Below, piece after piece: positions 12,508-47,714 of a DNA stretch of 64,000 nt. Within the stretch, counting starts at the first letter, position 1; every line of letters starts with the position of its first letter. This stretch comes from Candidatus Wolfebacteria bacterium GW2011_GWE2_44_13 (GTDB lineage Bacteria > Patescibacteriota > Minisyncoccia > UBA6257 > UBA9933), in assembly GCA_001000675.1 (NCBI GenBank), contig LCHW01000001.1, positions 424,875 through 488,874 of the forward strand. The letters run 5' to 3'. The notes beneath the pieces were generated by a model. The model did not search any database. It had not been told where the DNA came from and saw only the letters and a program-made list of their open reading frames with translations. The position numbers were made by a program, and so were the translations under genes.

Positions 12508-12515
12508 GATGAAAA

Positions 12516-12541
12516 AAAAGGGAGCCACTAGGGCTCCCGTT
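12516..12541 (-). terminator. Rho-independent terminator (GGGAGCC-actag-GGCTCCC plus T8 on the minus strand). Copy 1 of an exact 26-bp repeat.
   Basis: The string aaaagggagccactagggctcccgtt also occurs at 13616..13641. Confidence 0.7.
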
Positions 12542-12562: not shown

Positions 12563-13534
12563 TTAGACGAACAGGCTTCTTTCGAAAAACTGCACAAGAT
12601 TTTCTCCGACGACGGTGTGAGTTTTTTCGCCGGCGATATCACGAATACTATTCGCGATGTGCTCGAGCTTGTTCGGTCCGAGAAAGATCTCTGGGTGTTC
12701 CGGATACCGCGCACCCCATGTTCCCTGGGGGTCGATCTTCGTGCGCATCATTTCAAACTGCGCACGTGCTTGCTCCTCGTCCACGTTCGAGTATGTCCCG
12801 TCGCTTCCGATAACGACAGACTCGATGCCACACACATTAATTGCATGCCTGATGTGTGCTCGGAAATGATTAATGTCCTCGTTTCCGTTCCCGAGAATAA
12901 ATTCGAGTGTTGGGATGCCGATTACACCGCCACGTTCTGCAATCTCGCGCAATACCTGGTCGGGTAAATTGCGGAAATGCGGATACACTCCGTAGCACCC
13001 TGTGTGCGATGCCATTACTGGAAGAAACAGCCGAGCTTCGTGGATGAACCTGAGCACCTCCCTTGCCATGCGATGACTTGCATGAGCGAGATCGAGAATC
13101 ATGCCCTTTTCCTGATCCATCGCCCTGAGAACGTCTTTTCCTGCCTGCGTTAGTCCGACATCCAGGTTCATACACCCACTGCCGTACATATTCACGGTGT
13201 CGTACGCCAGTGAGATAACTTGAATGCCAGCGCCTTTAAGGGCAGTAATGTCCACATTGTCCGGAAGGTTTTGAAGCCCCAGGATAATAGCGGTCGAGTT
13301 ATCTTCGCGAGCCATCACGATGTCATCTGTGTGCGTTGCGATTGTAACCAGGCTATCTGCATTTTGGAACAGGGCCACCTTAAATTTCTCGGCCTCCTCC
13401 AGCACCATGCTGGTTGTTGGTGCCCACGGCGGAGCACATGTGACAAGCGCCAAGTCAATTGCCATGTCACTCGTGATTGTCGGGGGTTGTCCGGGCATTC
13501 CGAAAAATGCCATCGCGTCTGCTCTTCTTGCCAT
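12563..13534 (-). CDS. Membrane dipeptidase (peptidase M19 family). The gene is clearly GC-richer than its surroundings.
   Basis: Motifs LDLAHAS and VIGSDGTY and the overall renal-dipeptidase-like pattern are present. GC content is visibly higher than in neighbouring genes. Confidence 0.8.
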   Translation of the reverse strand: MARRADAMAFFGMPGQPPTITSDMAIDLALVTCAPPWAPTTSMVLEEAEKFKVALFQNADSLVTIATHTDDIVMAREDNSTAIILGLQNLPDNVDITALKGAGIQVISLAYDTVNMYGSGCMNLDVGLTQAGKDVLRAMDQEKGMILDLAHASHRMAREVLRFIHEARLFLPVMASHTGCYGVYPHFRNLPDQVLREIAERGGVIGIPTLEFILGNGNEDINHFRAHIRHAINVCGIESVVIGSDGTYSNVDEEQARAQFEMMRTKIDPQGTWGARYPEHPEIFLGPNKLEHIANSIRDIAGEKTHTVVGENLVQFFERSLFV

Positions 13535-13615
13535 TGTCTTGCTCCTTTTCTCTGTAGTTGTAGGATAGTGAACTGACTATATTATGAACATATTCTATAT
13601 ATTTGTCAAGGTACA

Positions 13616-13641
13616 AAAAGGGAGCCACTAGGGCTCCCGTT
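13616..13641 (-). terminator. Rho-independent terminator. Copy 2 of the exact 26-bp repeat.
   Basis: It is identical to 12516..12541. It lies downstream of the minus-strand gene 13646..14161. Confidence 0.7.
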
Positions 13642-16480: not shown

Positions 16481-17086
16481 TTATTTATTTAGAATAACCA
16501 ATTCCCTAACCCTTCCTACTGGAGTGGTGTATAATATTTGCTCTGTAGTGCTAAATATTTTTGATAACCTATTTTTCCAGTCATCGTAATAAAATTTGCA
16601 TGGCTCATAGTCATCTTCTTCATTATAGACAGTCCCCTTTGCTGGATTATCGATAAGAATTAGTCCGTTAGTTTTTAACATATCCTTCGCTCTTTTAATT
16701 GTAGTCAATTGTGCCTCTTTTGAGAACTCCCCTATAACTGTCCATGGGAAAATAATTACATCAAAATTATTGCCTTGATAGTTTTCAAATGCAGAGTAGA
16801 TAACCATGTCCTCAACATTCTTTATTCCATTATTCGCTAAATAATTTTTAAAAAAAATGAGGTACGGTTGATGCTGTTCGATTCCTATGTATTTATAAAC
16901 GCTTATTAAATGCTTGCCTATCCTACCGGTCCCACACCCGACTTCTAGAATAGAATTATTGATTTTAAGATATTTTTCGAATTGTAAAAAATCAGCTGGA
17001 CTCTCGCCTCCTAACCCAGCTTGCTCGGCAAAGTAATTTAATTCTTCACAATTTACATTATCGTATACGGACATGTTTATTTCCAA
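16481..17086 (-). CDS. Class I SAM-dependent methyltransferase.
   Basis: Motif I is LEVGCGTGRIG, followed by an acidic motif II. Confidence 0.75.
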   Translation of the reverse strand: MEINMSVYDNVNCEELNYFAEQAGLGGESPADFLQFEKYLKINNSILEVGCGTGRIGKHLISVYKYIGIEQHQPYLIFFKNYLANNGIKNVEDMVIYSAFENYQGNNFDVIIFPWTVIGEFSKEAQLTTIKRAKDMLKTNGLILIDNPAKGTVYNEEDDYEPCKFYYDDWKNRLSKIFSTTEQILYTTPVGRVRELVILNK

Positions 17087-17106
17087 AGCATTTTATCTAT
17101 GCAATT

Positions 17107-17565
17107 TTACTGTTCCGGATTAAGCATTACTACTATCTTCGCATCAACGCCGTGGCCGAGGGGGATTGCGACTTCGTTTGCGCCGAGCGTTTTGATTGGC
17201 TTTTCTAGCTCAACTTTCACAACCCCCTTTTCTTTTCCGAGCGGAGATAGCTTTGATTTAATTGCCTCTTCTACTTCGTGTTTTGTTACGGAGCCAAATA
17301 CTTCATTATGCTTGCCAACTTTTGTTGTGAACGTAAAAGGGCTTTCGTTCATTGCTTTTACTGATGCGAGCAACTCTTCTACGAGTCTCTGTTGCTGCTT
17401 TTCCTTGCTTTCCTTTTGTACTTGCAACTCGTGTGTTGCTTGACCTGTCGCAACCTTAACTAATCCTTTTGGGATAAGGAGGTTTTTGGCATGGCCATCG
17501 GAGACGTTTTTCACGTCGCCTTTTTTACCGAGACCTTTTACGTCTGCTAGGAATATTACCTTCAT
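17107..17565 (-). CDS. rplI: 50S ribosomal protein L9.
   Basis: The N-terminus [35 protein letters not shown] is the typical L9 N-domain. Confidence 0.9.
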
Positions 17566-17589
17566 GTTTTTTTAAATATTCCTATATTT

Positions 17590-17700
17590 GTCGAACTGCT
17601 TCGTTGCGGGCCCCTGTTGTCTCGGTCATCGTACAATTAGCACGTTTCCCTCGCCAACTCTCCCCTGCCTACCGGCAGGCAGGCGCGCCTCGCATTTCAT
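17590..17700 (-). other. GC-rich, hairpin-containing leader region upstream of rplI.
   Basis: About 100 nt are far GC-richer than the surrounding AT-rich intergenic DNA. It includes the stem cctgcc-tacc-ggcagg and the palindrome ggcgcgcc. Confidence 0.3.
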
Positions 17701-17740
17701 CCAAATCTAGAAATATTTTTTAAATTATTCTGGATACTTT

Positions 17741-18997
17741 TTATTTCAGTTGTTCTTTAAGCACCTCAACTGCCTTATCGAATTGCGGATCTTTTTCTGC
17801 CTTTACATCTTCTTCGGTTATAGCAATTTTTACATCAGGGGTAAGCCCGTTTTTGTCGATGACGGTTCCGTTTGGCGTGAGCCAATGTGCAATCGTTATC
17901 TTTACCATCGCGTCCGCTTTGAGCGGAATTAATTCTTGCACGCTCCCCTTTCCAAAGCTTTTTTCTCCGACGAGCTTAGCGCCATTATTATCGCGTAATG
18001 CTCCAGCGAGAATTTCAGATGCCGATGCTGACCCTTGGTTAATAAGTACTACTGTTGGCGTGTTGCGAAATACCGGAAGACCTTGTGCTTCGAAATTTTC
18101 GTGCCCATCGTTATCTGCCTTAAACTTTTCGGTTACGACAACACTTCCTCGATCAACAAACCATCCCGCGATGTTTACTGATGCATCGAGATATCCTCCT
18201 GGATTGTTACGTAAGTCGAGAATAATCCCCTTTGGATTTTTGTCTATTGCTCCTGCAACTGCTTGATAGAAAAGAAGTGGAGATTTTTCGTAAAAGTTAT
18301 AAAGCTGAATGTATAGGATTTTTCCGTTAGCATCTTCTTTGCCTGCGTCATTGACCATCTTCCAATCGAGTGTTGGGATTTGAATCGCATCACGTACTAT
18401 TGGAAAATCTTTTGTATCAGACCATCCTTCGCGAAATAAGGTTAGTGTTACAGTTGTTCCCTTTTCGCCACGAATTTTCCCTACTGCAGTTTCTGTGGTA
18501 AGACCATGCGTATCTTCATCATTTATCTTTACAATTGCATCGCCCGCTTTTATGCCTGCTCGTTCAGCAGGTGTATTTTTTAACGGTGCTACTACAACAA
18601 GTTGTTCGTTTCGAATACCTATTTCTGCTCCAATACCTCCGAATTCTCCACTAATCTCTTGGGCAAAATCGTCTGCTTCTTTGGGTGGCATGAATACGGA
18701 ATAAGGATCACCAGTAGATGCGAGCATGCCCGAGATTGCCCCATAGACCTTCTCTTGCTCGGTTATATTCTTTGCATCGACGTATTTATCATCGAGAACC
18801 TTCCATGCGTCCCAAAACAAGCTAAAATCAGCGTTTGTTTCCTTGCCGTCTTCTAGATTCGTTACTCCTTTTACAATAGTGAGCTTTGGTTGTTCAGCTC
18901 CCTTGCGATATCCATACGAAAAACTCGCACCTCCGAGAAGGACGATTATTAGTACGATACTAACCGCAAGTGCTATGCGTGTTGCCAGTTTTTTCAT
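17741..18997 (-). CDS. ctpA: Carboxyl-terminal processing protease (S41) with a PDZ domain.
   Basis: There is an N-terminal TM segment and a PDZ domain (GIGAEIGIRNEQLVVVAPLKNTPAERAGIKAGD). The S41 serine region is LINQGSASASEILAGAL. Confidence 0.9.
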   Translation of the reverse strand: MKKLATRIALAVSIVLIIVLLGGASFSYGYRKGAEQPKLTIVKGVTNLEDGKETNADFSLFWDAWKVLDDKYVDAKNITEQEKVYGAISGMLASTGDPYSVFMPPKEADDFAQEISGEFGGIGAEIGIRNEQLVVVAPLKNTPAERAGIKAGDAIVKINDEDTHGLTTETAVGKIRGEKGTTVTLTLFREGWSDTKDFPIVRDAIQIPTLDWKMVNDAGKEDANGKILYIQLYNFYEKSPLLFYQAVAGAIDKNPKGIILDLRNNPGGYLDASVNIAGWFVDRGSVVVTEKFKADNDGHENFEAQGLPVFRNTPTVVLINQGSASASEILAGALRDNNGAKLVGEKSFGKGSVQELIPLKADAMVKITIAHWLTPNGTVIDKNGLTPDVKIAITEEDVKAEKDPQFDKAVEVLKEQLK

Positions 18998-19009
18998 TGC
19001 TCCATTGTA

Positions 19010-19591
19010 TCAAACGGAGGGCTTGAAGTCTATTGATTTTACAATCGAATATGTTGCCCCTGTGCTATCTAGGCGCGATTCCATAAGGTCTATGGTCGCA
19101 GGTGTAAATGTGAGCGTGCTCGGAAATGTGGTTACATGCCCCTCTATTTTTCTTCCCTCGGGAAGATTGGCGATATTAATATGCCCATGATATGCCGGAT
19201 GCGCTTCTCCTTTTTGAAAAATACCCTTTGCAGCGAGCCCCTGCTCAATCATATGTTTTAGCTGCCCAAGTGCTTCATTGGTTGGCGTTATGGTTGTTAT
19301 CCAAATCATACGCGGTGGTCGCTTTGGTGGTGCGGTTGTGAGCGTTCGCAGAGAAACAACCGGTGTACTTATTTTTGTTACCACAGTGTGTAACACATCC
19401 TCAATAACCGAAAGCGCTTCCTCGGGCTGGTTTCCTAAAAATTTAATTGTTAGATGCCAATTATTTTCTGGTATCGGATGCGCATCTGTATACAATTCCG
19501 CAACATTCTTTTTATCTAAATCAACCGCATTGCGAATAGTTGTTTTGATGTCTTGGGGAAGATTGATTGCGATAAATAGTTTATGTTCCAT
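19010..19591 (-). CDS. 2H phosphoesterase family protein (RNA 2',3'-cyclic phosphodiesterase ThpR/LigT-like).
   Basis: The first H-x-T-x motif is WHLTIKFLG. The second motif is degenerate (HGHINIA). Size and layout fit LigT. Confidence 0.5.
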   Translation of the reverse strand: MEHKLFIAINLPQDIKTTIRNAVDLDKKNVAELYTDAHPIPENNWHLTIKFLGNQPEEALSVIEDVLHTVVTKISTPVVSLRTLTTAPPKRPPRMIWITTITPTNEALGQLKHMIEQGLAAKGIFQKGEAHPAYHGHINIANLPEGRKIEGHVTTFPSTLTFTPATIDLMESRLDSTGATYSIVKSIDFKPSV

Positions 19592-19599
19592 ATATATGT

Positions 19600-20685
19600 T
19601 TACGGCTGAAGAATATCCTCTGTCCTTCCGTTTATTGCAATAACAACTTCCTTTACGCTTGGGAATTGTTTAAGTGTTTCGGTAATTTGTGCGCGAATAG
19701 CGGTTACGCGACATGAACCACCAACTGCTTTATCAAGCTCTTCGGAAAAATCTATATACGCCACTCCATTTTCGATAGTGAGCGTGTTAATGCGCACGTT
19801 CGGATTGATGTTGGTAAAATAATCAGCAGCCTTCTCTGCCTCCATTGGTCCTTTAAGAAGTTCTTCGATTGCTGCACGCCCTATCCCTTCGGTCCATGGT
19901 ATTTCGCGTGTCGATGGAAAAACTTTGTCACAGAGAAATGCCGGATCAAGTTTGCTGTTATTAAAAAAGACATTAATTTTTATCGACGATAACTCAAAAT
20001 TAACAGGCACCTCAAACGATTTTTCGTGTTCCTTTAATCCGCTTGGATTGTCATTTCTAAAAATTAAGAATCCGGTTTTTGTGGTTGGCTTTTTGAATTC
20101 GAATTCTCCCTTGAACGGAACGAGTGATTCGGACATCCAGTCTTCGGTAGCAGTTACATAATGCTTCCCGAGTAGTTTTCGGTTTGCATCGATAATTTCT
20201 ACGCCAAACACTGCCTCGAAGTACCACATACCTCTCGCTAATCCTTCGACGAGTAATGGGCTTGTTGCTACAGTATTTTCTGTTGGGATCGTTATAATAA
20301 TTTCTGGACTTGTGATGATACGAATATCATTCGCGAGCATTGCATTTTTTGCGATTGACTCCCCTTTTCCTTCTATAGTGTATCCAATATGTATAAGCGA
20401 ACTTTCTACGGATTTATTTTTTTCATCAACAAATTTTGTTTCTGGGGTAAAGGCTATTTGTATTTCTTCTGTTGTTGATACATCTTTTATGGTTATGATT
20501 TTTGCGCTTTGCATAACCTGAATAACTTCACCACGCACCGTTTTGTTCATGCGTATAATACCATCTTTTTGTGAAGTGGGTGGGACGATTTTTTCTGGCC
20601 TCTGTTGCCATAGCACAACCATGCCAATAATAAGCGCAGCTCCGATTAGTGCAACTGTTGTGAAGAAAAAGGCTCGTGATCTCAT
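19600..20685 (-). CDS. GerMN domain-containing membrane-anchored protein.
   Basis: There is an N-terminal TM segment. A C-terminal GerMN-like domain runs ...GVAYIDFSEELDKAVGGSCRVTAIRAQITETLKQFPSVKEVVIAINGR. I trimmed the start to the ATG at 20685 to avoid overlap with the upstream gene. Confidence 0.5.
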   Translation of the reverse strand: MRSRAFFFTTVALIGAALIIGMVVLWQQRPEKIVPPTSQKDGIIRMNKTVRGEVIQVMQSAKIITIKDVSTTEEIQIAFTPETKFVDEKNKSVESSLIHIGYTIEGKGESIAKNAMLANDIRIITSPEIIITIPTENTVATSPLLVEGLARGMWYFEAVFGVEIIDANRKLLGKHYVTATEDWMSESLVPFKGEFEFKKPTTKTGFLIFRNDNPSGLKEHEKSFEVPVNFELSSIKINVFFNNSKLDPAFLCDKVFPSTREIPWTEGIGRAAIEELLKGPMEAEKAADYFTNINPNVRINTLTIENGVAYIDFSEELDKAVGGSCRVTAIRAQITETLKQFPSVKEVVIAINGRTEDILQP

Positions 20686-20696
20686 ATGGTTACAGT

Positions 20697-21998
20697 CTAT
20701 TGCTTGTTTGTTATTGGTGCAAGTCGATATATAACGCCTGCCTTGTCGTCGGAAATATATGCGGCTCCGTTTGCGTGAAATAGAATATCTACTGGGCGAC
20801 CAAGCGTTTTTTGTTCGCCATCTATCCACCCCGTGATAAAGTCCGTTACACCTTCATATGTGCCATTTGCATTGAACTGATGGCGTACGATTTTGTAACC
20901 GGTTGGCACGCTGCGATTCCATGATCCATGATATGCGACTAAAAGGTCGTTATGATATTCTTCTGGCCAGCTATTCGGAATAAATGCGAGCCCAAGTGGG
21001 GCAGAATGCGCTTGAATGTCGATGTAGCTCGGGGTTTCGAAAGGCTCCATGCACGGGTTGCGGAAATAGGTATTTTTATCAAATTCCGTATCATGGCTGT
21101 TTTTCCCGTAACAAATTGGCCACCCATAATTGCCGCCCTGCTTGATGATATTGATCTCGTCCGGAGGGGTATTATCGCCTAAGAGGTCTCGGCCCATTTC
21201 CGTGGCCCAAATGTCTCCTGTGAGTGGGTTAAAAGCCATAAAAACGGCGTTACGAAGCCCTCTAGCGAACGTTTCTGTCTTTCCTGTACCGATGTCTATT
21301 TTTGCAATTGTCGCCCTATTGGGGTCGTTTTCGTTGCAAACATTGCAGGACGAACCAATGGAAACAAGGAGGTTGTTTTTGTACGGCAACAGTGTTCGCG
21401 TACTGTGCCCTCCGCCACTCGGGAGGGATGCAATAACCCGTTTGTTAGTTGCGGTTAAGGCTGCTGCGTCGTAGGTAAATTCACTTACTTTATCTGTTTC
21501 AGCGACGTATAGTTTGCATATATTTTCTTGTGCGCACTGCACAAGAATGCCATGGGGTGCGTTTAATCCGGAAACGACTATTTTTGTCTCGTCGCTTTTA
21601 CCGTCGTTGTTTGTATCGATAAGCGCGACTACGTTCCCCTTACCCGGAATACTTGCGAGTAAAACATTGCTAGGATCAGTCGTTAGTACGCGCGGATCAT
21701 TTAAATCTTTAGCAAAAATAGAAAGTGAAAATCCTTGCGGTATACGGAGCGGTCCTTGGGATATAACTGGCGCTGTTTGTTTAGGCGGCTTTGGCGTTGC
21801 CGTCGTGGTTGTTGGTGTCGCCTGCTCTTCTGGTTGCGATACCGATGTAGATGCTTGTTCGATAAGTCTCACGATGTCTTGCTCCGGCTTTGTGATTGCG
21901 GGCCAAATACCTCGGAGTTGTGTCCAATATACTATCGTTCCTCCGACAACCGCGAGTGCAATAAGTATTCCTCCTGTGGTGAGAATTATTTTTTTCAT
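20697..21998 (-). CDS. PQQ-dependent sugar dehydrogenase (soluble glucose/sorbosone dehydrogenase-like beta-propeller) with an N-terminal TM segment and a Pro/Thr-rich linker.
   Basis: Motifs LAFIPNSWPEEYHNDLLVAYHGSWNRS and GRPVDILFHANGAAYISDDKAGVIYR are present. The gene overlaps sodA by 4 nt. Confidence 0.7.
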   Translation of the reverse strand: MKKIILTTGGILIALAVVGGTIVYWTQLRGIWPAITKPEQDIVRLIEQASTSVSQPEEQATPTTTTATPKPPKQTAPVISQGPLRIPQGFSLSIFAKDLNDPRVLTTDPSNVLLASIPGKGNVVALIDTNNDGKSDETKIVVSGLNAPHGILVQCAQENICKLYVAETDKVSEFTYDAAALTATNKRVIASLPSGGGHSTRTLLPYKNNLLVSIGSSCNVCNENDPNRATIAKIDIGTGKTETFARGLRNAVFMAFNPLTGDIWATEMGRDLLGDNTPPDEINIIKQGGNYGWPICYGKNSHDTEFDKNTYFRNPCMEPFETPSYIDIQAHSAPLGLAFIPNSWPEEYHNDLLVAYHGSWNRSVPTGYKIVRHQFNANGTYEGVTDFITGWIDGEQKTLGRPVDILFHANGAAYISDDKAGVIYRLAPITNKQ

Positions 21999-22606
21999 AT
22001 ATGTTCAGTATAATTTTGTCCTACAACTTTCCAGTCGAGTACGTTCCACCAGTTTTGAATATATTCGGCTCTTCGATTTTGATAATGAAGATAATATGCG
22101 TGTTCCCAAATATCGATAACCATAAGGGGCGTGTCTCCCGTCATGAGTGGATTATCATGTCCTTGGGTTGAAGTAATGGTAAGTTTTTTATTGGTCGCGT
22201 CGAATACTAACCATACCCAGCCGCTTCCGAAAAGATTTGTTGCTGCCACAGTAAACTGTTCTTTAAATGCGACAATACTACCGAAGTCGTCGACAATTGC
22301 CTTCCCTAATTCTTCGGGAATATCTTCCTGCGCAGTTGGGCTCATGCAATTCCAATAGAATGTATGGCTAAAATGTCCGCCTGCGTTATTACGAACGGTT
22401 GTGCGAATTGTTTCAGGGATTTCATCGAGCATCGCGATGAGCTCTTCGGCGGTTTTGTCTTGTAGTTCGGGATATTTTTCAAGCGCTGTGTTGAGTTTAT
22501 CGACGTACGATTGATGATGTTTGCTGTGATGAATTTCGAGTGTTCGCGCATCGATAAATGGCTCGAGTGCATTGTATGCATACGGAAGCGGTGAAAGTTG
22601 GTGCAT
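21995..22606 (-). CDS. sodA: Fe/Mn superoxide dismutase.
   Basis: Motifs HHSKHHQSYV and DIWEHAYYL are present. Confidence 0.9.
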   Translation of the reverse strand: MHQLSPLPYAYNALEPFIDARTLEIHHSKHHQSYVDKLNTALEKYPELQDKTAEELIAMLDEIPETIRTTVRNNAGGHFSHTFYWNCMSPTAQEDIPEELGKAIVDDFGSIVAFKEQFTVAATNLFGSGWVWLVFDATNKKLTITSTQGHDNPLMTGDTPLMVIDIWEHAYYLHYQNRRAEYIQNWWNVLDWKVVGQNYTEHI

Positions 22607-22656
22607 AAAAATAAGTTGGTTAGGTTACGCTCGACGTTGCTTCTATTATATCAAAT

Positions 22657-22689
22657 AGTAACAAAAAACGCCCCCGAGTGGGGGCGTTG
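22657..22689 (-). terminator. Terminator/repeat unit T1 (aacgcccccgagtgggggcgtt plus T-run on the minus strand).
   Basis: A member of a 4-copy repeat family. The other copies are at 23365, 24050 and 24458. Confidence 0.7.
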
Positions 22690-22692
22690 AAA

Positions 22693-22983
22693 CTACTTGT
22701 GAAACGTGTAATTGAATAACACGTTTGAGTCCAGAAAATAGGTAATCGTCTGGCTTCCTTCACGCACAGTGATCTCTGAGTAGCTAAAGAGATTTCGTTT
22801 TGTCTTGATGACTTCGGTGATAGTTGGATGATCTACTCGCAGTTCTTTTAGAACGCCGTCCGACGTCCACCATGCATTGTTCGTGGGGATGACTACTACG
22901 TTCACTACCACGATTAGCGCGATAACGATAACGATTATCAGCTCGATAAGCGTGTATCCTTTGCAATTACGAAGGTTGGTCAT
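22693..22983 (-). CDS. Type IV pilin / pseudopilin-like protein (96 aa) with a class III signal peptide.
   Basis: The prepilin motif is MTNLRNCKG-YTLIELIIVIVIALIV. The SD is aaAGGAGcagggccATG. I trimmed the start to the ATG at 22983. Confidence 0.65.
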   Translation of the reverse strand: MTNLRNCKGYTLIELIIVIVIALIVVVNVVVIPTNNAWWTSDGVLKELRVDHPTITEVIKTKRNLFSYSEITVREGSQTITYFLDSNVLFNYTFHK

Positions 22984-23021
22984 GGCCCTGCTCCTTTTGT
23001 TGAATGCTTTGAACGATGCGT

Positions 23022-23303
23022 TTATGCCTCGTCCAAGAACTTGATGAAGATCAACGGCATCTTGCGTATTTCGTGCCGTCCATGCAACAAATTCACGACT
23101 CGCTGCACTTCCTGGAATGCTTTGATATCCGGGGCGACGCATTCGAGATACGGAAACGGATCGCCTAAATGATCGGCGACTTTTGACTGAACAATTTCGG
23201 TCACGAGTTTATGTGCCATACGGGATGACAACGCGGTAACGATTTCTCGGCGAATTTTTTCCGCCTCCACTTCTCCAACTCCATGAATCTTCACAATAAT
23301 CAT
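23022..23303 (-). CDS. Small protein (93 aa), paralog A, with a tautomerase-like N-terminus.
   Basis: The sequence MIIVKIHGVGEVEAEKIRREIVTALSSRM is paralogous to 23426..23707, sharing PYL.C.A.D..F.EVQRVV.LL.GR.EI.KMPL. The SD is AGGAGG. Confidence 0.5.
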   Translation of the reverse strand: MIIVKIHGVGEVEAEKIRREIVTALSSRMAHKLVTEIVQSKVADHLGDPFPYLECVAPDIKAFQEVQRVVNLLHGRHEIRKMPLIFIKFLDEA

Positions 23304-23364
23304 CGGTTGTCCTCCTGTGTGAGAGTTAATAGTGCTGATTAGATTAAATAATAATATATAAAAT

Positions 23365-23399
23365 ATGTCAAACTAAAAACGCCCCGAGGTGGGGCGTTG
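23365..23399 (-). terminator. Terminator/repeat unit T2 (atgtcaaactaaaaacgccccgaggtggggcgttg).
   Basis: The hairpin plus T-run is on the minus strand. The conserved flank atgtcaaac is shared with T3 and T4. Confidence 0.7.
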
Positions 23400-23425
23400 G
23401 GTGTATTTCGAGTTATCAAATACAG

Positions 23426-23707
23426 CTATGAAGCATCGGAGAGCTCCACGTATAACAAAGGCATTTTTGGAATTTCGTAACGCCCCTGCAGTATCGTAAC
23501 AACTCGCTGCACTTCCCTGAAGCTTCGACGATCATGCGCAGTGCATTTGAGATACGGGCACTTCTCTTCCCTGTGGTTCTCGATGTTGGACAAAATAATT
23601 TCAATCACGAGAACTCTTTGTAATGGGATTGATGCTGCGTTGAATATCTTTGTCCGCAGTGCCTGTGCGTCGCTCGTGTTGGCGCCGTGAATTTCTAAGA
23701 TCGTCAT
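23426..23707 (-). CDS. Small protein (93 aa), paralog B (MTILEIHGANTSDAQALRTKIFNAASIPL...).
   Basis: Paralog of 23022..23303. The SD is GGGAGGT. I trimmed the start to the ATG at 23707. The Arg-rich N-terminal extension in the ORF track is read-through. Confidence 0.5.
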   Translation of the reverse strand: MTILEIHGANTSDAQALRTKIFNAASIPLQRVLVIEIILSNIENHREEKCPYLKCTAHDRRSFREVQRVVTILQGRYEIPKMPLLYVELSDAS

Positions 23708-23727
23708 GCGGGCTACCTCCCTTTGTC

Positions 23728-23988
23728 TTAGTCTGCCGCGGGGCGCAAGCGCCCAGTTTCCTCGAAATACTCGATCTCCTCGAGAATCATGAGTCGCGCG
23801 CCGACGATATCGAGTGCGTCGGGAGTTGCCTCGTAAAAGAGGAGCAACTGCAAGACCTTTTCGATAATGTGTTGGCTTAACGTTTCCGGCTCTATGCCGG
23901 TGGGGCCCTTCTTTTCCGTTGCCCATCGATAGAGGTCTCCGTAATTCGCGAGTTTTGCCACCTCGTCGCCGATCTGTTCGCTGTCCAT
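23728..23988 (-). CDS. Small acidic protein (86 aa, MDSEQIGDEVAKLANYGDLYRW...).
   Basis: The SD is GAGGTGA. It lies 20 nt upstream of paralog B and is co-transcribed with it. I trimmed it from the longer ORF. Confidence 0.4.
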   Translation of the reverse strand: MDSEQIGDEVAKLANYGDLYRWATEKKGPTGIEPETLSQHIIEKVLQLLLFYEATPDALDIVGARLMILEEIEYFEETGRLRPAAD

Positions 23989-24049
23989 AGACGTCACCTC
24001 GTTTTTAGGATGTTTTGAGCTGTCCCTACTGTATTTATTTTTTGTAACG

Positions 24050-24084
24050 ATGTCAAACAAAAAACGCCCCGAGATGGGGCGTTT
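24050..24084 (-). terminator. Terminator/repeat unit T3 (atgtcaaacaaaaaacgccccgagatggggcgttt).
   Basis: A repeat family member with a hairpin plus T-run on the minus strand. Confidence 0.7.
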
Positions 24085-24088
24085 GGCA

Positions 24089-24391
24089 TTACCGCGGACG
24101 GTATGCGATAACCTGCACGACTTCGATGTCGTACGTTTCTGCTGCGCAGAGATGTTCGCAGGAATCGATGAGCCCGATGATGCTGCGATGGTCCTCATCG
24201 GGAGTGATGTATGCCCGCAGAAACGGACGATTTCCTTGGCGCTCAACGCGCTCGCATACGCCGTTGACGACCGTGATACGGCAATCTTTTCCTGGTCTGT
24301 GATGCCGGATGTGCCTCCTGAGCTTGTTTCGATCGTGAATCATTTCTTCGAATTCGTGTCCTGGTCTGCCTCCAAACTCGATGTGTATCAT
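24089..24391 (-). CDS. Small protein (100 aa) with a Cys pattern C-x8-C...C-x3-C.
   Basis: The SD is gAGGAGGtttccATG. Repeat unit T3 follows it. Confidence 0.4.
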   Translation of the reverse strand: MIHIEFGGRPGHEFEEMIHDRNKLRRHIRHHRPGKDCRITVVNGVCERVERQGNRPFLRAYITPDEDHRSIIGLIDSCEHLCAAETYDIEVVQVIAYRPR

Positions 24392-24457
24392 GGAAACCTC
24401 CTCTCTCCTTCGATTAGGGTGATGGAGCTACTCGCACTGTAAGTATTTTAGGAGAAA

Positions 24458-24489
24458 ATGTCAAACTAAAAACGCCTCGCGGCGTCTTT
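24458..24489 (-). terminator. Terminator/repeat unit T4 (atgtcaaactaaaaacgcctcgcggcgtcttt), a degenerate copy.
   Basis: The same conserved flank with a mutated stem. It lies downstream of the S51 peptidase gene. Confidence 0.55.
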
Positions 24490-25114
24490 ATGCTGAAATT
24501 ATTTTAAGTGTATCGTTATCGACCCATATTGCTTGGTTGTCATGCAGTAATATGAGCGGTTCTGCGTGGTTGGAGAGCTCCTTAATAATCTCGGCATATT
24601 CACTTGCGAATTCCGGATTATTGCAGTGCGGAATGACGCCGAAGTTGATAAGCCCTAATCCCCTTCTGTTGGGGACGGTATCGAGAAATTCTTTCTCACC
24701 CTCGTCAAACGCAAATAGGGCGAGTGATTCAGAAATAATCATTGAGCCTGCGCTTGATCCTGTATAGATAACAGATTCGCTTTTTACTGCGTCGATAATA
24801 CTCTGCCCTAGATTTTTTTCTCGTAATAATCCGACGAGATAAAAAACACTTCCGCCGGCAATATGTAGAATGTCTGTATCCTCGAGTGCCTGTGTGAGCG
24901 CTCCCGTCGAAGTGGTTCGTAGGTCTATATCAGTCAGCTTGTAGCCGAGCTCCGTGAATTTAATTCGATCATTACTTACCCACCATGCATCTTTTGTAGG
25001 ATAGTTGTCAGATGCATTTGCAATAAATAAAACTTTTGTAGCCGCTTTGTTTTGCAAAAGCGGCTTAAGGAGTGGAAGGGTTTTATCGATTGCGGATGCG
25101 AGGAAGAGTTTCAT
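24488..25114 (-). CDS. Peptidase S51 (dipeptidase E / cyanophycinase-like).
   Basis: The serine motif YTGSSAGSMI lies in a class I glutamine-amidotransferase-like fold. Confidence 0.7.
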   Translation of the reverse strand: MKLFLASAIDKTLPLLKPLLQNKAATKVLFIANASDNYPTKDAWWVSNDRIKFTELGYKLTDIDLRTTSTGALTQALEDTDILHIAGGSVFYLVGLLREKNLGQSIIDAVKSESVIYTGSSAGSMIISESLALFAFDEGEKEFLDTVPNRRGLGLINFGVIPHCNNPEFASEYAEIIKELSNHAEPLILLHDNQAIWVDNDTLKIISA

Positions 25115-25717
25115 TTATTTAACCTTTGCTCCTGATTCAATATCTTTTTCTGGAGTAAGGAGTACTGGGTTTTCCGCTCCGCCTGCAGCGAGTAGCATAC
25201 CATGGCTTTCCACACCCATTAACGCGCGTGGGGCGAGGTTGGCAACGATGATAATTTCTTTACCAACAAGCTCTTCTGGGCCATATGCTTTACCGATGCC
25301 GGCAACAATCTGTCGTTTTTCATCCCCTACTTCGAGCTGAAGCTTAATTAATTTTTCGGACTTCTCTACTCGCTCAGCTTCCATAATCTTCGCCACCTTT
25401 AATTCTACTTTTGCAAAATCGTCGTAGGTAATTTCTCCCTCGTTTGTTGTAGTGTGTTCTTCCTTCGTTACGGCTGGTGCTTCTACTAGCTTCTCATGTT
25501 TTGTCGCCACCTTTGGCTGACGCTTGGCATAGAGATAATACACATCAAGGATTCCTAGTGTGTTTATGAGAAGCAATACGACGAACCAAACTCTTTCCTT
25601 TCGCTCAAATGCTCGTAATAACGCAGCTCCTTTTATTGTGAATGTCCATATAAATAACAAAAGAAATTCGACTGGATGATTAAGAATAAATATGAATAGT
25701 AAATATTGTATTTCCAT
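25115..25717 (-). CDS. Membrane-anchored tRNA-binding domain protein (CsaA/Myf-like OB fold).
   Basis: There are N-terminal TM helices. The C-terminal tRNA-binding domain runs ITYDDFAKVELKVAKI...KAYGPEELVGKEIIIVANLAPRALMGVESHGMLLAA. Confidence 0.65.
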   Translation of the reverse strand: MEIQYLLFIFILNHPVEFLLLFIWTFTIKGAALLRAFERKERVWFVVLLLINTLGILDVYYLYAKRQPKVATKHEKLVEAPAVTKEEHTTTNEGEITYDDFAKVELKVAKIMEAERVEKSEKLIKLQLEVGDEKRQIVAGIGKAYGPEELVGKEIIIVANLAPRALMGVESHGMLLAAGGAENPVLLTPEKDIESGAKVK

Positions 25718-25781
25718 AAATGTGTAATTAAATAAATTGCTCTTAGTGCTAGTATGATTGTTTTGCTCCTAAAATACTATA

Positions 25782-26600
25782 TCAGTCATCATCCTCATCG
25801 TCATCACCTCTATTATTGCTTGCTCCCACGGGGACGGTTGGACTTGTGGTTTGTTGTATTGTTTGCGTATTTGCTACTTGGCCAACTGCGCCTACGAAGA
25901 ATGATGCAAGTAGTTGGTGCGCGTTCGTTGAATGAGGAAGACCTTCAAATGCTGCTCCCCCATCTTTGCCACAATAGCGCAATATTGCAGAAGTGCCTCC
26001 CGGATGTCGTGGTAAATAACTCGTTACATTATACACATTATTATTAACGATCATCCAACAATCTTGTGCTATGTTATGCTTTGCTATTTCTTGTATGGAT
26101 AATGCTACAGATGCATTTGGTTGCGTGGATGGAGCTGTTGGCTGTGTTGCCGGTGTATTTGATTGTGGTTTAGTAGTGGGGCTCGCAGTTGGAGCAACTG
26201 CAATCGCTTCTTGTCCGAGATCACCGATATAGTAAGCCTTTAATAGTTCGTGTGCATTTTGAGAATGCGGAGATGGGCTCGTGGTTCTTCCTTTCGTGCT
26301 ATATGCTCGTGTTGCGTCTGTGCCGCATGTTGGCAGAATTGTATCTGCATCGCCAGGATGTTGATTTAAATACGAAGTAACGTCATATATCTTTTTATCA
26401 ATCAATAGCCAGCAACTTGATGCGCTCGCATGCTTTGCCAGCTCTTCTTTTGTTAAGATTGTACCCTGTGCGATTAATTGCGCGGGATTGTTTTGCGGCG
26501 TTGGATTGTTTGTTTTTTCCTGGAGTGCAAAGCCCGCGGTAAAAAGCGACGTAACAAATGCCCAAAATATAAAGAGTGATATGAGCGTTAATTTTTTCAT
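25782..26600 (-). CDS. Secreted protein with two tandem cytochrome b5-like heme-binding domains.
   Basis: There is a signal peptide and two HPGG-type motifs (LNQHPGDADTILPTCG and LPRHPGGTSAILRYCG). The C-terminus is acidic. Confidence 0.7.
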   Translation of the reverse strand: MKKLTLISLFIFWAFVTSLFTAGFALQEKTNNPTPQNNPAQLIAQGTILTKEELAKHASASSCWLLIDKKIYDVTSYLNQHPGDADTILPTCGTDATRAYSTKGRTTSPSPHSQNAHELLKAYYIGDLGQEAIAVAPTASPTTKPQSNTPATQPTAPSTQPNASVALSIQEIAKHNIAQDCWMIVNNNVYNVTSYLPRHPGGTSAILRYCGKDGGAAFEGLPHSTNAHQLLASFFVGAVGQVANTQTIQQTTSPTVPVGASNNRGDDDEDDD

Positions 26601-26605
26601 GGGTT

Positions 26606-27913
26606 TTAACGTAACGTGAATTCTTCGGTGTGAATATGGGCTCGACTAACGCCTTTCGCAGCAAGCTGCTTTTTGAGACTGTGCATCAGCGGTACTGGCC
26701 CACAGATAAGGATCTCGTTTGCAAAGATATCTTCTCCCATTGCTTGCAACGCATCTGCAGAAATATATCCGCGCTCGTTTGAGCAAAAAGTTGCGATGGT
26801 GATATTTGGATTCTTTTGCGCGACAGCGATGAGCTCTTCGAGAAATACCGCTTCTGTTTTGTTGGCAACACAGTAGTATATTTTTATACGGTATGCGGGG
26901 TCGATAATTGCTTTTGCCATACCAATAAACGGAGTGATTCCAATACCGCCCGCAATCCATAGCTGATTTTTCCCTGGGGCGCGCTCGTTTGAAAAAACGC
27001 CGAAAGGCCCCTCTATTTTTGCGACGGTGTTCTTCGCGATTAATTTAAATTTCCCTGTGTGATCTCCGAGTGTTTTTACGGCGATTGCTAGCCGTGGCTC
27101 ATCGGGTGACGACACAATGGAAAATGGATGAAATTCATCCCCCACTATTTCAGTTTTAAAACTAATAAATATAAATTGCCCTGCTTTATATGTAAACGGC
27201 TTGAACACGGGCTTCATAAATATCTCTACTGTATGCTCATCCATGGGGCGTACTTCATCAACAATATATTCTATGTATGAAACAAAAAGTTTTGGAGCAA
27301 CTGTTCTGTATATGATTGGGATTAAGCCGAGTACGACAAAGAATACCATATACCAATACAATAGCGATGATACTTGTGTGTCGCTATAAATAATAAGGGT
27401 ATGTATAGATGCGAGTATAAAAGAAGCTGCGAGAAACTTGTGTGTAATCCTCCACTTGTCATACGCAAAAGAAACAAAAAACGTAAGCACAAGAAATAAC
27501 ATCATAGATAGCAACGCAAATATCCCCCAGAGAATAGGCGGGTTTGTAGAAAGAAGAAATAATGCAGCGTCACGTGGTGAAGCTACGAACGCAAATTTAA
27601 GAGCGAGGAATATTGGGTGGAATAATAGCAGTGAAAATGCAATTGCACCAAACGTGTGGTGTGCAAGATATACCCGATTCATTCCATTAAAAAAGCGCTC
27701 CAAAATCGGGTGGCGTGTACTTAGAATGAGATTGAGCGCAAACATAGCCATGCCGACGAGGCCGAGCATTTGGCCAATGCTGGTTAGCGTTGTGGTAAAC
27801 GTTGCAAAACGTTCAGATAATGGCTGTATTGTAGCCCAAATAAACAACGGTGACACTGAAAGTGCCCCTACAATGAACCACCCTGATAGACCTTTCATCT
27901 TCTGTACTAGCAT
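26606..27913 (-). CDS. Ferric reductase-like transmembrane domain fused to an FAD/NAD(P)-binding domain (bacterial NOX-like oxidoreductase).
   Basis: The TM region carries paired His (HHTFG, HTLII). The HPFS motif (HPFSIVSS) and GGIGITPF are present. It sits 6 nt upstream of the di-cytochrome b5 gene on the minus strand. Confidence 0.7.
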   Translation of the reverse strand: MLVQKMKGLSGWFIVGALSVSPLFIWATIQPLSERFATFTTTLTSIGQMLGLVGMAMFALNLILSTRHPILERFFNGMNRVYLAHHTFGAIAFSLLLFHPIFLALKFAFVASPRDAALFLLSTNPPILWGIFALLSMMLFLVLTFFVSFAYDKWRITHKFLAASFILASIHTLIIYSDTQVSSLLYWYMVFFVVLGLIPIIYRTVAPKLFVSYIEYIVDEVRPMDEHTVEIFMKPVFKPFTYKAGQFIFISFKTEIVGDEFHPFSIVSSPDEPRLAIAVKTLGDHTGKFKLIAKNTVAKIEGPFGVFSNERAPGKNQLWIAGGIGITPFIGMAKAIIDPAYRIKIYYCVANKTEAVFLEELIAVAQKNPNITIATFCSNERGYISADALQAMGEDIFANEILICGPVPLMHSLKKQLAAKGVSRAHIHTEEFTLR

Positions 27914-27949
27914 ATAGCTTATTATACTGAATTGTTTGTTGTTTGGATA

Positions 27950-27975
27950 TAAAAAGCCCCCGATGGGGGGCTTAG
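27950..27975 (-). terminator. Rho-independent terminator (agcccccgatggggggct).
   Basis: A hairpin plus T-run on the minus strand after gene 27989..28423. Confidence 0.6.
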
Positions 27976-27988
27976 GGCGGCATGGATC

Positions 27989-28423
27989 TCATGCCGGAAT
28001 GGGCGGGACGAATAGGACCGCCATCTTCGCTCCCGATCCGAGGATTGGGAGGGGGATGATCTTGCTTTCGACCCCGGCGGCCTTGAGGATATCATAATAG
28101 CGCCGAGCCTCCCCTAACCGGGCTTTGTATCCGTCGAAGCCGCAGGGGTACAGGATGGTGCCATCCTCCAGCGACATGCCTGCAGTCGCTTCGATACGTT
28201 CGAAAAACCCCCGCTCACCTTCCTTTACGACAACATAAAAACCCCGCTCTATCGGCTTGGTGGAGGGCGAAATGTCGTTCCGTTGCAGAATGTCGATAAT
28301 CGGCATGCTGCGCAACAGCCGTTGCTGTGCAGGGCCACGCGTTGCCGTGTAGGCTTCTTTTGCCGCTTCTTGTGCGATCTTCTCTGCTCGTTCAATGAGG
28401 TCGCCTCTTTCGATTGTTCGCAT
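27989..28423 (-). CDS. Hypothetical protein (144 aa), GC-rich.
   Basis: An ORF with a terminator. No motif was recognised. Confidence 0.4.
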   Translation of the reverse strand: MRTIERGDLIERAEKIAQEAAKEAYTATRGPAQQRLLRSMPIIDILQRNDISPSTKPIERGFYVVVKEGERGFFERIEATAGMSLEDGTILYPCGFDGYKARLGEARRYYDILKAAGVESKIIPLPILGSGAKMAVLFVPPIPA

Positions 28424-28518
28424 ATCTCTCCTCCATTGGGACGTTAATTGTGTGGTGCTAGCAATAATTTAGCCCTTAAAAGGCCAGTTTGTCAAATGAT
28501 TGTACTTGTTAAAATCGG

Positions 28519-29556
28519 TCAACGGATCAGCATCCCATCCCCGAAGGAAAAGAATCGGAACTTGTGTTTGATCGCCAGACGGTAGAGCTCAAAGAGTTTG
28601 TCCTTGCCGATGAGGGCGGCGACGAGCATAAGAAGGCTTGATTGCGGAACATGAAAGTTGGTTATCATGCCATCGATAAAGGTAAATCGATACCCTTCTT
28701 GAATAAAGATGCTCGTGTTGTCGGATAAGTTTTTAAGCTCCCCTTTCTTTGTGGCTGATTCTAACGTACGAACAACGGTTGTACCTACACCAATAATAGG
28801 GCGGCCTTCTTTTTTTGCGTTATTTAAAAATGCCGCAGTCTCTTTGTCTATCTCGTACTGTTCGATGTGGAGCGCTCCCGTGTCGAGATGCTCCTGCGTC
28901 AGTGGTGCAAATGTGCCGATGTTTACGTGCAACGTTACGAAACGAATATCAATTCCCGATCGCTGCAACTTTTTAAGCAGTCGATCGGTGAAATGTAAAG
29001 AAGCCGTGGGAGCAGCGACTGAGCCGGAGTGTTTTGCGAAAACCGTTTGGTATCTTTTTCGCAAAGCGCTTTCGGTGAGCGGGGTTTTTTTAATGTACGG
29101 AGGAATGGGCGTAATACCATGACGCTCAAGTACGGCCGCAAGCTGTTGTATAGGAAACGACGGCTTTAGGAGATACTGTTTTTCGTCGTGGCTTACGACG
29201 GTTAAAAATAAGTCTTTTGCGATAAGAACATTTGTGCCTACAATAAGTTTTCTATCAGACATGACCCGAATGCAATCCCCTTCTGTTGCGATATATAATA
29301 TGCGTGCTTCGCCACCTGTTGGTTTTGTTACCTTGAGACGAGCGGGAAATACTTTTGTCTGATTAAAAACCAGTACCGCGTTTTTCGGAAGATATTCTCC
29401 GATATGCGCGAAAGTGCTTTCTGCTACCTCGTCATTCTTCCTGTCGTATATTAATAGCTTTGCGCTGTCGCGTGGCGATGCGGGGTTTTGCGCAATAAGC
29501 GTTTCGGGGAACGCGTAATCGTATGCCTGTATTGTTTGCTCTAATAATTGCTTCAC
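28519..29556 (-). CDS. queA: S-adenosylmethionine:tRNA ribosyltransferase-isomerase.
   Basis: The N-terminus LLEQTIQAYDYAFPETLIAQNPASPRDSAKLL is the QueA signature. Confidence 0.9.
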   Translation of the reverse strand: MKQLLEQTIQAYDYAFPETLIAQNPASPRDSAKLLIYDRKNDEVAESTFAHIGEYLPKNAVLVFNQTKVFPARLKVTKPTGGEARILYIATEGDCIRVMSDRKLIVGTNVLIAKDLFLTVVSHDEKQYLLKPSFPIQQLAAVLERHGITPIPPYIKKTPLTESALRKRYQTVFAKHSGSVAAPTASLHFTDRLLKKLQRSGIDIRFVTLHVNIGTFAPLTQEHLDTGALHIEQYEIDKETAAFLNNAKKEGRPIIGVGTTVVRTLESATKKGELKNLSDNTSIFIQEGYRFTFIDGMITNFHVPQSSLLMLVAALIGKDKLFELYRLAIKHKFRFFSFGDGMLIR

Positions 29557-37547: not shown

Positions 37548-38789
37548 TTATTCAGAGCGCAACGCTTCCATAGGACTTTTTTTGGCTGCTTGCGTTGCGG
37601 GGAAAATGCCGAAGATAAATCCAATGGCTATCGCAACGATTGCACCAATGATTGCGCCTTGTAGTGGGAAGAAGAAGCGAAAATCAATGCTATATATTTG
37701 GCCAAGAATAATGGTTAATAAAATACCTCCGCCCCATCCAATAAGTATGCCGATAAGCGCCCCGCTCATCGTGAGAATAAGTGCTTCAAAAAGAAACTGG
37801 CGCAGAATATCTTTGTCCGTTGCCCCGAGCGCTTTGCGAAGGCCAATTTCTTTGGTGCGTTCAGTTACTGATACAAACATAATATTCATAATACCAACGC
37901 CGCCAACCACGAGCGAAATTGCCGCTATGGTTGTTAGTAATATCGTAAGAATATCCGTGATTGTCGTAAGAAGTGCAGCTGCATCTTCCATGGTCATGGT
38001 GTAAAAATCATCCTTGGTGCTGTCAGTAATATCATGGCTTTCACGCACGGTTCTTTTAATGTCTTGCACCATTGCCGGAATACTTTCTTCGGTGCGTGCT
38101 TCCACGATAATGTGACTAATGTAATGAACCCCCATAACGTATAACTGTGCGGTTGTATAGGGAATGACAAACGCACTATCGAACTCACCTGCCGCGCCCG
38201 AGCCTTTTTTCTTTAGTATTCCTATGACGCGATAATTTTTATCCTTTATTTTTACATGCTTACCAATTGACTCTTCCAATCCAAATAATTTTTCTGCCAC
38301 TTTACTTCCAATAACAACTACCCCAGCTTTTTGTGCAACGTCTTCATCGGTAAATATATCACCTGCCTCAAGCTCGAGTTGGAAAATTCTAAAGATCACC
38401 TCCTCTCCTCCAAGGAGCGGACCGTTAAAAAGCTGTGAACCATAGGTTGCGGTTACGCTGCTTTCCATATAAGGCATAACTGTTTCTGCATCTGGTACAT
38501 TTTCCATTCTGCGGAGTGCTACAACGTCTTCCTCCTGTAGGGAGTCATTCATGATTGAGCTACTAAACCCAGAAAAACCCTCGGGTTGTTTCCCAGGGAG
38601 TACAAACACATTTTTAGGGCCAAAACTTTGTACCTCGCGAATAATTAATTCTTGTGCGCTGCTTCCGATTGCAAGAATAAGAATGATTGATGTTATGCCA
38701 ATCACGATACCAAGGATCGTTAACAATGATCGCGATTTATGCATAACAACCCCTTCGTATGCGGCTTTTAGTCTGTCAGTATTAGTCAT
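37548..38789 (-). CDS. ABC transporter permease (FtsX/MacB-like).
   Basis: There is an N-terminal TM segment, a periplasmic domain and the C-terminal FtsX 3-TM region. It is a paralog of the next gene. Confidence 0.8.
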   Translation of the reverse strand: MTNTDRLKAAYEGVVMHKSRSLLTILGIVIGITSIILILAIGSSAQELIIREVQSFGPKNVFVLPGKQPEGFSGFSSSIMNDSLQEEDVVALRRMENVPDAETVMPYMESSVTATYGSQLFNGPLLGGEEVIFRIFQLELEAGDIFTDEDVAQKAGVVVIGSKVAEKLFGLEESIGKHVKIKDKNYRVIGILKKKGSGAAGEFDSAFVIPYTTAQLYVMGVHYISHIIVEARTEESIPAMVQDIKRTVRESHDITDSTKDDFYTMTMEDAAALLTTITDILTILLTTIAAISLVVGGVGIMNIMFVSVTERTKEIGLRKALGATDKDILRQFLFEALILTMSGALIGILIGWGGGILLTIILGQIYSIDFRFFFPLQGAIIGAIVAIAIGFIFGIFPATQAAKKSPMEALRSE

Positions 38790-38790
38790 A

Positions 38791-47705: not shown

Positions 47706-47714
47706 ATAATTGCT

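Follow-up and report, generated by a model that had tools for sequence, protein, structure and literature searches.

In integron arrays with attC sites, such as the VCRs (Vibrio cholerae repeats) of Vibrio, short genes are each followed by a similar hairpin repeat, and the gene content varies among relatives. Another arrangement, found in compact bacterial genomes, is the back-to-back placement of an intrinsic terminator and a sigma-70 promoter, in which a GC-rich hairpin and its T-run are followed by a TTGACA box, 17 nucleotides (nt) and a −10 box. Both resemble a cluster of five small minus-strand genes, punctuated by a hairpin repeat, in a 64,000-nt stretch of DNA (hereafter the window) from Candidatus Wolfebacteria bacterium GW2011_GWE2_44_13 (assembly GCA_001000675.1, contig LCHW01000001.1, positions 424,875 to 488,874). 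These genes encode a Cys-patterned (Cys-type) protein, an acidic protein, the paralogous proteins B and A, and a type IV prepilin-like protein. An initial annotation, made from the sequence without database searches, described the cluster as a horizontally acquired, duplicating cassette array of pilus or surface genes, or as an unrecognised system. We consider it probable (roughly 70%) that it is instead a lineage-specific small-gene cluster in the core chromosome, consisting of three short independent units that meet at terminator-promoter junctions and carrying a locally duplicated, rare protein family that lacks the N-terminal proline (Pro1) of the tautomerases. In this reading, the anatomy of the locus, the predicted fold, the paralogy and the synteny are shown, and the division into transcription units, the route of duplication and any function are inferred.

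The proteins closest to this family belong to the tautomerase/MIF superfamily. MIF, D-dopachrome tautomerase, the fused 4-OT proteins, cis-CaaD and MSAD depend on Pro1 and are 110-150 amino acids (aa) long; their identity to the family described here is 2-15%. The DUF1904/VC0714-like proteins (PDB 1u9d and 4m1a) are part of the same fold group, with 108-122 aa as compared with 93-100 aa here, and structural alignment gives 12-16% identity. Superfamily proteins without Pro1 are known but uncharacterised; 346 such sequences have been described, usually with Ser, Ile or Ala after the Met (PMC5818174). Known proteins of this kind (e.g., 8U6, PDB 9c6d) align by sequence with their own subgroup and keep the other active-site residues (PMC5818174), whereas the present family matches no superfamily sequence model.

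Hairpins, terminators and promoters

Between window positions 22600 and 24500, the minus strand carries five short open reading frames (ORFs), each with a GGAG-type ribosome-binding site 6-9 nt 5' of the ATG. The ORFs and their Shine-Dalgarno motifs are present exactly as initially annotated, and their positions, together with the promoters and terminators that we read from the sequence, bear out the three blocks described there. In each copy of the repeat, 6-9 perfect pairs form a GC-rich stem, the loop has 4-5 nt, and a T-run follows; the copy lies a few bases 3' of a stop codon and has the orientation of the gene that it follows. The free energies of the four hairpins range from −13 to −18 kcal/mol, with z values of about −4. 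A GC stem-loop with a U-run after a stop codon in gene orientation, which is the form of an intrinsic terminator, is predicted at all four sites. In three copies, the T-run leads directly into GTTTGACA, and a putative −10 box follows 17 nt further on (TACAGT in two cases and TTTAAT in one). Putative promoters 1 and 2 (TTGACA-17-TACAGT) agree with the consensus at 10 of 12 positions and are 73% identical to each other over 55 nt (family D1); an orthologous promoter 1 is kept in a relative, locus L010. The −10 box of putative promoter 3 is without the usual A at position 2, and this promoter was absent from the list produced by the consensus scan; it aligns with the other promoters.

The repeat had been reported as an element of about 33 bp in four copies. 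The hairpin is indeed found four times, but the full element is present in three copies only, as the one after the prepilin gene (22667-22688) is a hairpin without the GTTTGACAT part. In the copy that follows the S51 peptidase gene, the stem is shorter. The sequence GGCGTTTTTNGTTTGACAT has 3 exact occurrences (0.26 expected), and the pattern ACGCC-N4-10-GGCGTTTTT has 4 (0.00 expected). All four of the latter lie in the array and none elsewhere in the 64 kb; the search for further copies that the initial annotation had proposed thus found the hairpin pattern confined to the array.

The identity that extends past the hairpin had been taken to mean that these are copies of one element rather than independent terminators. 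However, that shared sequence is a U-tract followed by the consensus TTGACA −35 hexamer, and in the terminator scan of the window, a hairpin at 56203 that is unrelated to the repeat was followed by the TTTTTTGTTTGACA junction as well. For this reason, the "33-bp repeat" is best read as an intrinsic terminator fused to the next promoter, and not as a mobile or separate element. T-run/TTGACA junctions were also found at 44205 and 13638. Since such junctions recur at these three places, terminator-promoter fusion appears to be a habit of this compact genome; with minimal intergenic space, each T-run would reach straight into the next −35 box. Three transcription units are predicted: promoter 1, the Cys-type gene and a terminator; promoter 2, the acidic-protein gene with paralog B and a terminator; and promoter 3, paralog A with the prepilin gene and a terminator.

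The cluster differs from an ordinary back-to-back terminator and promoter in that three or four adjacent copies have almost identical hairpins, even in their loops, which points to duplication or gene conversion rather than to independent origin. The hairpin copies are 83% identical over 42 nt in the window and 97% identical over 31 nt in L010, again with the loops included. As hairpins are homogenised within a genome even though paralogs A and B share only 56% nucleotide identity, a value below that of their junction hairpins, the junction modules may have undergone unequal crossing-over or gene conversion on a local scale.

A different explanation is that the repeat is a recombination or mobile element, comparable to an integron attC site, a repetitive extragenic palindromic (REP) or bacterial interspersed mosaic element (BIME), or a miniature inverted-repeat transposable element, and that the genes are cassettes captured or amplified by hairpin-specific recombination. 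Such an element would fit with the finding of near-identical hairpins only in the array, the gene content of the slot that varies between relatives, the unusually high GC content at third codon positions (GC3) of all five genes, the homogenised loops within each genome, and a second case of this kind, the identical 26-nt terminators around an M19 dipeptidase gene at 12538/13638. However, no integrase, transposase, REP-associated tyrosine transposase (RAYT) or recombinase domain, and no pilus-assembly gene, was found among the scanned ORFs of at least 90 aa across the 64 kb. The hairpins have short, perfectly paired GC stems and T-runs and are located just after stop codons in gene orientation, unlike imperfect attC sites of 57-141 nt; the units have promoters of their own; and the core genes are syntenic in L010. 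REP or BIME sequences occur as many copies dispersed among unrelated intergenic regions of a genome; here, all four copies within the 64 kb are inside the array. In a scan that covered metagenome contigs and 185,579 species genomes, neither collection including the window's own genome, a 19-mer of the repeat was present only as singletons in unrelated taxa, with no locus having more than one copy; the two Patescibacteria loci that carry it (L020 and L021) have unrelated contexts. We regard a mobile or recombination element as unlikely.

An integron cassette array was set aside as a match: no integrase or recombinase was found among the window ORFs scanned, the hairpins are perfect terminators of 20-23 nt with T-runs and not attC sites, each unit has its own TTGACA promoter where integron cassettes are promoterless, and a relative shows synteny at this locus. 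A search of the repeat against Rfam yielded no family and only sub-threshold chance matches.

Two other duplicated modules were observed. On the minus strand of the window, identical 26-nt terminators (AACGGGAGCC-CTAGT-GGCTCCC plus a T-run) are located at 12512-12538 and 13612-13638, either side of ORF 12563-13534. This ORF is the M19 dipeptidase gene, with a GC3 of 0.57 and its own TTGACA promoter, and it is a second gene framed by duplicated terminators. In another locus, L011, a promoter module of about 75 nt (AATACTTTATAC..GGGGATTGACA..GATATAAAATCAT) is duplicated (83-157 and 762-844) before two small-gene groups, one of which contains the gene for P0004, a relative of the proteins described next.

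A small protein family with a predicted tautomerase fold

Paralogs A and B align without gaps along their entire 93 residues with 42% identity (E 1e-27), in agreement with the paralogy initially proposed. The Cys-type protein, whose relationship to them had gone unnoticed, appears to be a third, distant paralog. A comparison of the A/B profile with the Cys-type profile by hhalign gave an E value of 1.4e-4 at a probability of 52%. The Cys-type protein and its ortholog P0005 (35% identity), which is encoded beside the A/B-type protein P0003 in L010, open with an xIEIHG-type strand, as do A and B. An alignment of all six sequences (A, B, the Cys-type protein, P0003, P0004 and P0005) holds together from end to end, with P0004 linking the two groups, and Gly8 and Arg18 are the only residues invariant in all of them. 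A and B are nearer to each other (42%) than to P0003 (22-28%). Between strains, paralog A has 4 synonymous and 0 non-synonymous differences, which argues for its being a real coding gene.

The family is rare. An exhaustive HMMER search of 1.84 billion representatives (standing for about 15 billion proteins) added only P0003 and P0004 to A and B, and a word-indexed search of 5.8 billion clusters returned self-matches only for A and B, and one ortholog for the Cys-type protein. The family is therefore known from six sequences: four by the exhaustive search, a fifth by the word-indexed search, and a sixth that is unannotated. A, B and the Cys-type protein had no family in Pfam or NCBIfam at E ≤ 1, superfamily models such as Tautomerase, MIF, CHMI and DUF1904 included, and a profile search of PDB sequences with the tautomerase-fold proteins gave nothing under E 0.37. 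For four of the five cluster proteins, nothing was found in Pfam, NCBIfam, PHROGs or PADLOC, the N-terminus of the prepilin being the sole match. Viral contigs contained no relatives of any cluster protein, and a profile search of six-frame translations (of the window and the other loci compared) revealed no further paralogs.

The AlphaFold model of paralog A has a beta-alpha-beta-beta-alpha-beta topology, with a predicted local distance difference test score (pLDDT) of 87.6 and a predicted template modelling score (pTM) of 0.76, and that of the Cys-type protein has the same topology (pLDDT 77, pTM 0.68), both being monomer predictions from one shallow six-sequence alignment. Foldseek matched the model of A to 1u9d with a probability of 1.00 and a TM score of 0.68. 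Two beta-alpha-beta blocks per chain, as in fused members of the tautomerase superfamily, are present in these predicted models. The Cys-type protein, B and A are thus predicted to have a tautomerase/MIF superfamily fold, closest to DUF1904/VC0714, without the catalytic N-terminal proline. The initial hunch that the two paralogs are tautomerase-like was right at the level of the predicted fold (AlphaFold and Foldseek), and the absence of Pro1 that it pointed out is evident from their N-termini, MII in A and MTI in B. The Cys-type protein begins with MIH, and the L010 relatives begin with MLM (P0003) and MST (P0005). P0004 alone starts with MPE, but with the strand two residues out of register.

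No signal peptide was seen in the three tautomerase-fold proteins. They may be small cytoplasmic proteins, probably oligomeric like other members of the superfamily. Tentatively, they could have a non-canonical small-molecule-binding or enzymatic role rather than acting as Pro1-dependent tautomerases.

Relatives and history of the locus

In L010, the gene order is TGT, QueA, the tRNA-binding gene, P0005 (Cys-type), P0003 (A/B-type) and sodA, followed by the same downstream genes as in the window, and both small genes have their own hairpin terminator abutting a TTGACA promoter. Because the slot and the terminator-promoter layout are the same, the core pair (Cys-type plus A/B-type) appears to have been inherited in place. 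This result, from the comparison of synteny that the initial annotation had recommended, does not support a horizontally acquired cassette array, as L010 carries the pair in the corresponding place, with the tRNA-binding gene on one side and sodA on the other, and no integrase or transposase was found among the window ORFs scanned. The idea of a duplicating array fared better: duplication fits, and copy number differs between the relatives. Compared with L010, the window lineage has an extra paralog, the acidic-protein gene, the prepilin gene and the S51 peptidase gene, the last three each placed between a promoter and a terminator that were already there. Between the window and L010, identity is 77-82% for flanking proteins, as opposed to 22-35% for the small proteins, which suggests that the latter evolve much faster than their flanks.

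We propose that each unit would comprise a sigma-70-type promoter (TTGACA, 17 nt, TAnAnT), exactly one family member of 93-100 aa and a strong intrinsic terminator, and that the array may have grown by tandem duplication of whole promoter-gene-terminator units. Duplication of whole units fits with the likeness of the promoters, as this extends past the hexamers (family D1 and the promoter alignment). Unequal recombination at the repeated junctions would drive the duplication and, at the same time, keep the junctions alike. The acidic ORFan and the prepilin gene would have been added later inside existing units, and would therefore use the signals of those units.

A more far-reaching version, which we think improbable, is that the tautomerase-fold trio is a fast-evolving, lineage-restricted family diversified by a symbiont of the candidate phyla radiation (CPR) for interaction or stress, and that such arrays are reshuffled by integrase-free recombination at terminator-promoter hairpin modules. 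This recombination would duplicate whole units, homogenise the junctions and let new genes enter existing units. The genes for the prepilin, the S51 peptidase and the acidic ORFan could have entered in this way, as could that for the M19 dipeptidase, which lies between identical terminators.

The QueA-to-sodA interval (window 24488-28423 versus L010 2589-3332) is a hotspot of gain and loss. Present in the window only are a 144-aa ORFan (27989-28423, GC3 0.63, no Pfam match), a ferric-reductase-like protein, a double cytochrome b5 protein, and the S51 peptidase, the gene for which starts immediately after the stop codon of the tRNA-binding gene. When window positions 17000-29300 were compared with a strain, L001 (GCA_003508115.1), the differences were mosaic: 23250-25250 is identical, and differences cluster at 22500-22750 (the prepilin-sodA spacer and the start of sodA, with a 17-nt indel), 25500-26000, 17000-17500 and 18750-19000. 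This pattern suggests recombination tracts. Elsewhere on the minus strand, two HAMP-PAS histidine kinases of 743 and 763 aa (45474-50006) and two MacB/FtsX-type permeases of 437 and 413 aa (37548-40032) form adjacent pairs; given these same-domain neighbours, tandem duplication seems common in this genome.

The prepilin and the acidic protein

The prepilin matched Pfam N_methyl with 30.7 bits (cutoff 21.2; 2.1e-7) and TIGR02532 with 25.2 bits (cutoff 16.3; 1e-5), so that the initial prepilin call is sustained by two models above their cutoffs. Its leader, MTNLRNCKG, is followed by YTLIELIIVIVIALIVVV and would be cleaved before YTLIEL. A class III signal is recognisable from the leader, which is short and basic and has Gly at −1, and from Glu at +5 and a hydrophobic N-terminal helix; the motif is the sole one in the six-frame translation of the window. 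No prepilin peptidase and no assembly ATPase or platform genes were found in the window. The protein thus has the features of a genuine type IV prepilin, which would be an orphan within the 64 kb.

If the five genes formed one type IV pilus system, the tautomerase-fold and acidic proteins would be accessory proteins or chaperones of the co-transcribed pilin. Paralog A and the prepilin gene do appear to share a unit with no terminator between them, and the strain differences in the prepilin gene (3 synonymous and 3 non-synonymous) have their non-synonymous changes clustered at residues 74-79, in the C-terminal part, as is typical of exposed pilins. On the other hand, L010 keeps the Cys-type and A/B-type genes without any pilin, P0004 in L011 has no pilin neighbour, and no pilus assembly genes were found among the ORFs scanned in the 64 kb; no tautomerase-superfamily protein is known to act in pilus biogenesis. 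As only one of the five genes encodes a pilin and three encode proteins with tautomerase/MIF-type predicted folds, the initial view of an array of pilus or surface genes is not upheld, and a dedicated pilus system seems very unlikely. The Pam pilus of CPR bacteria was set aside as a match. The pilins of that system are Ig-like and are assembled by donor-strand exchange (bioRxiv 10.64898/2026.03.03.709456), unlike the type IV-type prepilin.

The acidic protein had only a self-match among the 5.8 billion clusters, gave nothing in Pfam, NCBIfam, PHROGs, PADLOC or PDB sequences, and showed no similarity to a 64-aa acidic protein of L011. With paralog B it might be taken for a type II toxin-antitoxin-like pair, the other paralogs then being orphan toxin homologs: the two genes form a predicted operon, their products are of 86 and 93 aa, and the partner encoded upstream is acidic. 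However, paralog B is nearly neutral (isoelectric point (pI) 7.8) and not basic, searches of Pfam, NCBIfam and PADLOC gave no match to models of toxins, antitoxins or defence systems, and A and the Cys-type protein are without an acidic partner. The tautomerase fold is not known as a toxin fold. This explanation is the least credible of those considered, and we give it hardly any weight compared with independent units carrying a duplicated family.

Gene context, base composition and public annotation

The genes and predicted signals of the cluster are listed in Table 1. On its upstream side (minus strand) lie the genes for the S51 peptidase, the tRNA-binding protein, cytochrome b5, ferric reductase, QueA and TGT, and on its downstream side sodA and the genes for a GSDH-like protein, Gmad2, LigT, an S41 peptidase and L9. 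A sequence equivalent to the probable sodA promoter, TGGTATAAT, lies 5' of sodA in L010. There are no tRNA genes and no Rfam families at gathering score in window positions 1-64000. The bacterium is uncultured and comes from groundwater, and the window is an ordinary part of its core chromosome.

Table 1. Genes and predicted transcription signals of the cluster (window positions; promoters, terminators and units are predictions)
Feature	Position	Strand	Remarks
Terminator 1, of S51 peptidase gene	24467..24490	−	Short hairpin GACGCC-GCGA-GGCGT + T-run; −13.3 kcal/mol, z −4.1; repeat copy 1
Promoter 1, for Cys-type gene	24436..24464	−	TTGACA, 17 nt, TACAGT; abuts T-run of terminator 1
Cys-type protein gene, 100 aa	24089..24391	−	Monocistronic unit 1
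Terminator 2	24062..24084	−	AAACGCCCC-ATCTC-GGGGCGTTT + T-run; −15.6 kcal/mol
Promoter 2, for acidic-protein/paralog B operon	24028..24056	−	TTGACA, 17 nt, TACAGT
Acidic protein gene, 86 aa, pI 4.4	23728..23988	−	Leads unit 2; 20 nt between it and paralog B
Paralog B gene, 93 aa	23426..23707	−	Predicted tautomerase-fold family; second gene of unit 2
Terminator 3	23378..23398	−	AACGCCCC-ACCTC-GGGGCGTT + T-run; −14.7 kcal/mol
Promoter 3, for paralog A/prepilin operon	23343..23371	−	TTGACA, 17 nt, TTTAAT; read from sequence
Paralog A gene, 93 aa	23022..23303	−	Predicted tautomerase-fold family, beta-alpha-beta-beta-alpha-beta; unit 3
Type IV prepilin-like gene, 96 aa	22693..22983	−	38 nt downstream of paralog A; unit 3
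Terminator 4	22667..22688	−	AACGCCCCC-ACTC-GGGGGCGTT + T-run; no TTGACA box; −18.1 kcal/mol
sodA probable extended −10 promoter	22645..22653	−	TGATATAAT; outside repeat

The stretch had been described as markedly GC-richer than the genome. Its total GC content is raised only modestly, to 0.482 as compared with 0.433 (about +2 standard deviations (SD), within the top 3% of windows of the same size), but third codon positions are clearly GC-richer, with a GC3 of 0.54-0.69 in the five genes against 0.41 ± 0.07 in 53 other ORFs.

Public gene calls place a 96-130-aa plus-strand ORF (24050-24442) over the Cys-type gene. The start ATG of this antisense ORF is formed by the reverse complement of TTGACAT, and the conserved minus-strand protein is missing from the protein collection searched. 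The Cys-type gene is mis-annotated on the wrong strand in these records, and paralog B is uncalled in several of them.

Discussion

Several observations weigh against a lineage-specific cluster of independent, locally duplicated units. The promoters and terminators are consensus predictions, and the repeat census covers 64 kb, whereas the genome has at least about 790 kb, the length of the longest contig on record. Both structural models share the same shallow alignment, and the hhalign link between the A/B and Cys-type subfamilies is only 52% probable. GC3 of all five genes is 2-4 SD over the window mean, so that a foreign origin would fit too, and a recent transfer of the syntenic core does not explain the raised GC3 of the five genes. 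Lastly, the hairpin loops are alike within a genome and unlike between genomes, which terminator function alone cannot explain.

With a cluster of independent units as the preferred reading, the suspected "cassette element" would be ordinary transcription punctuation, and the terminator-promoter junctions of a compact genome can mimic mobile elements. The homogenisation of terminator hairpins within a genome, loops included, poses a small mechanistic puzzle. One member of the family proved to be mis-annotated on the wrong strand in public records. What is new, and modest, is a family that sequence comparison fails to detect and that is predicted to have a tautomerase/MIF fold without Pro1; it would be a small, extreme case for the question of what the non-Pro1 members of this superfamily do.

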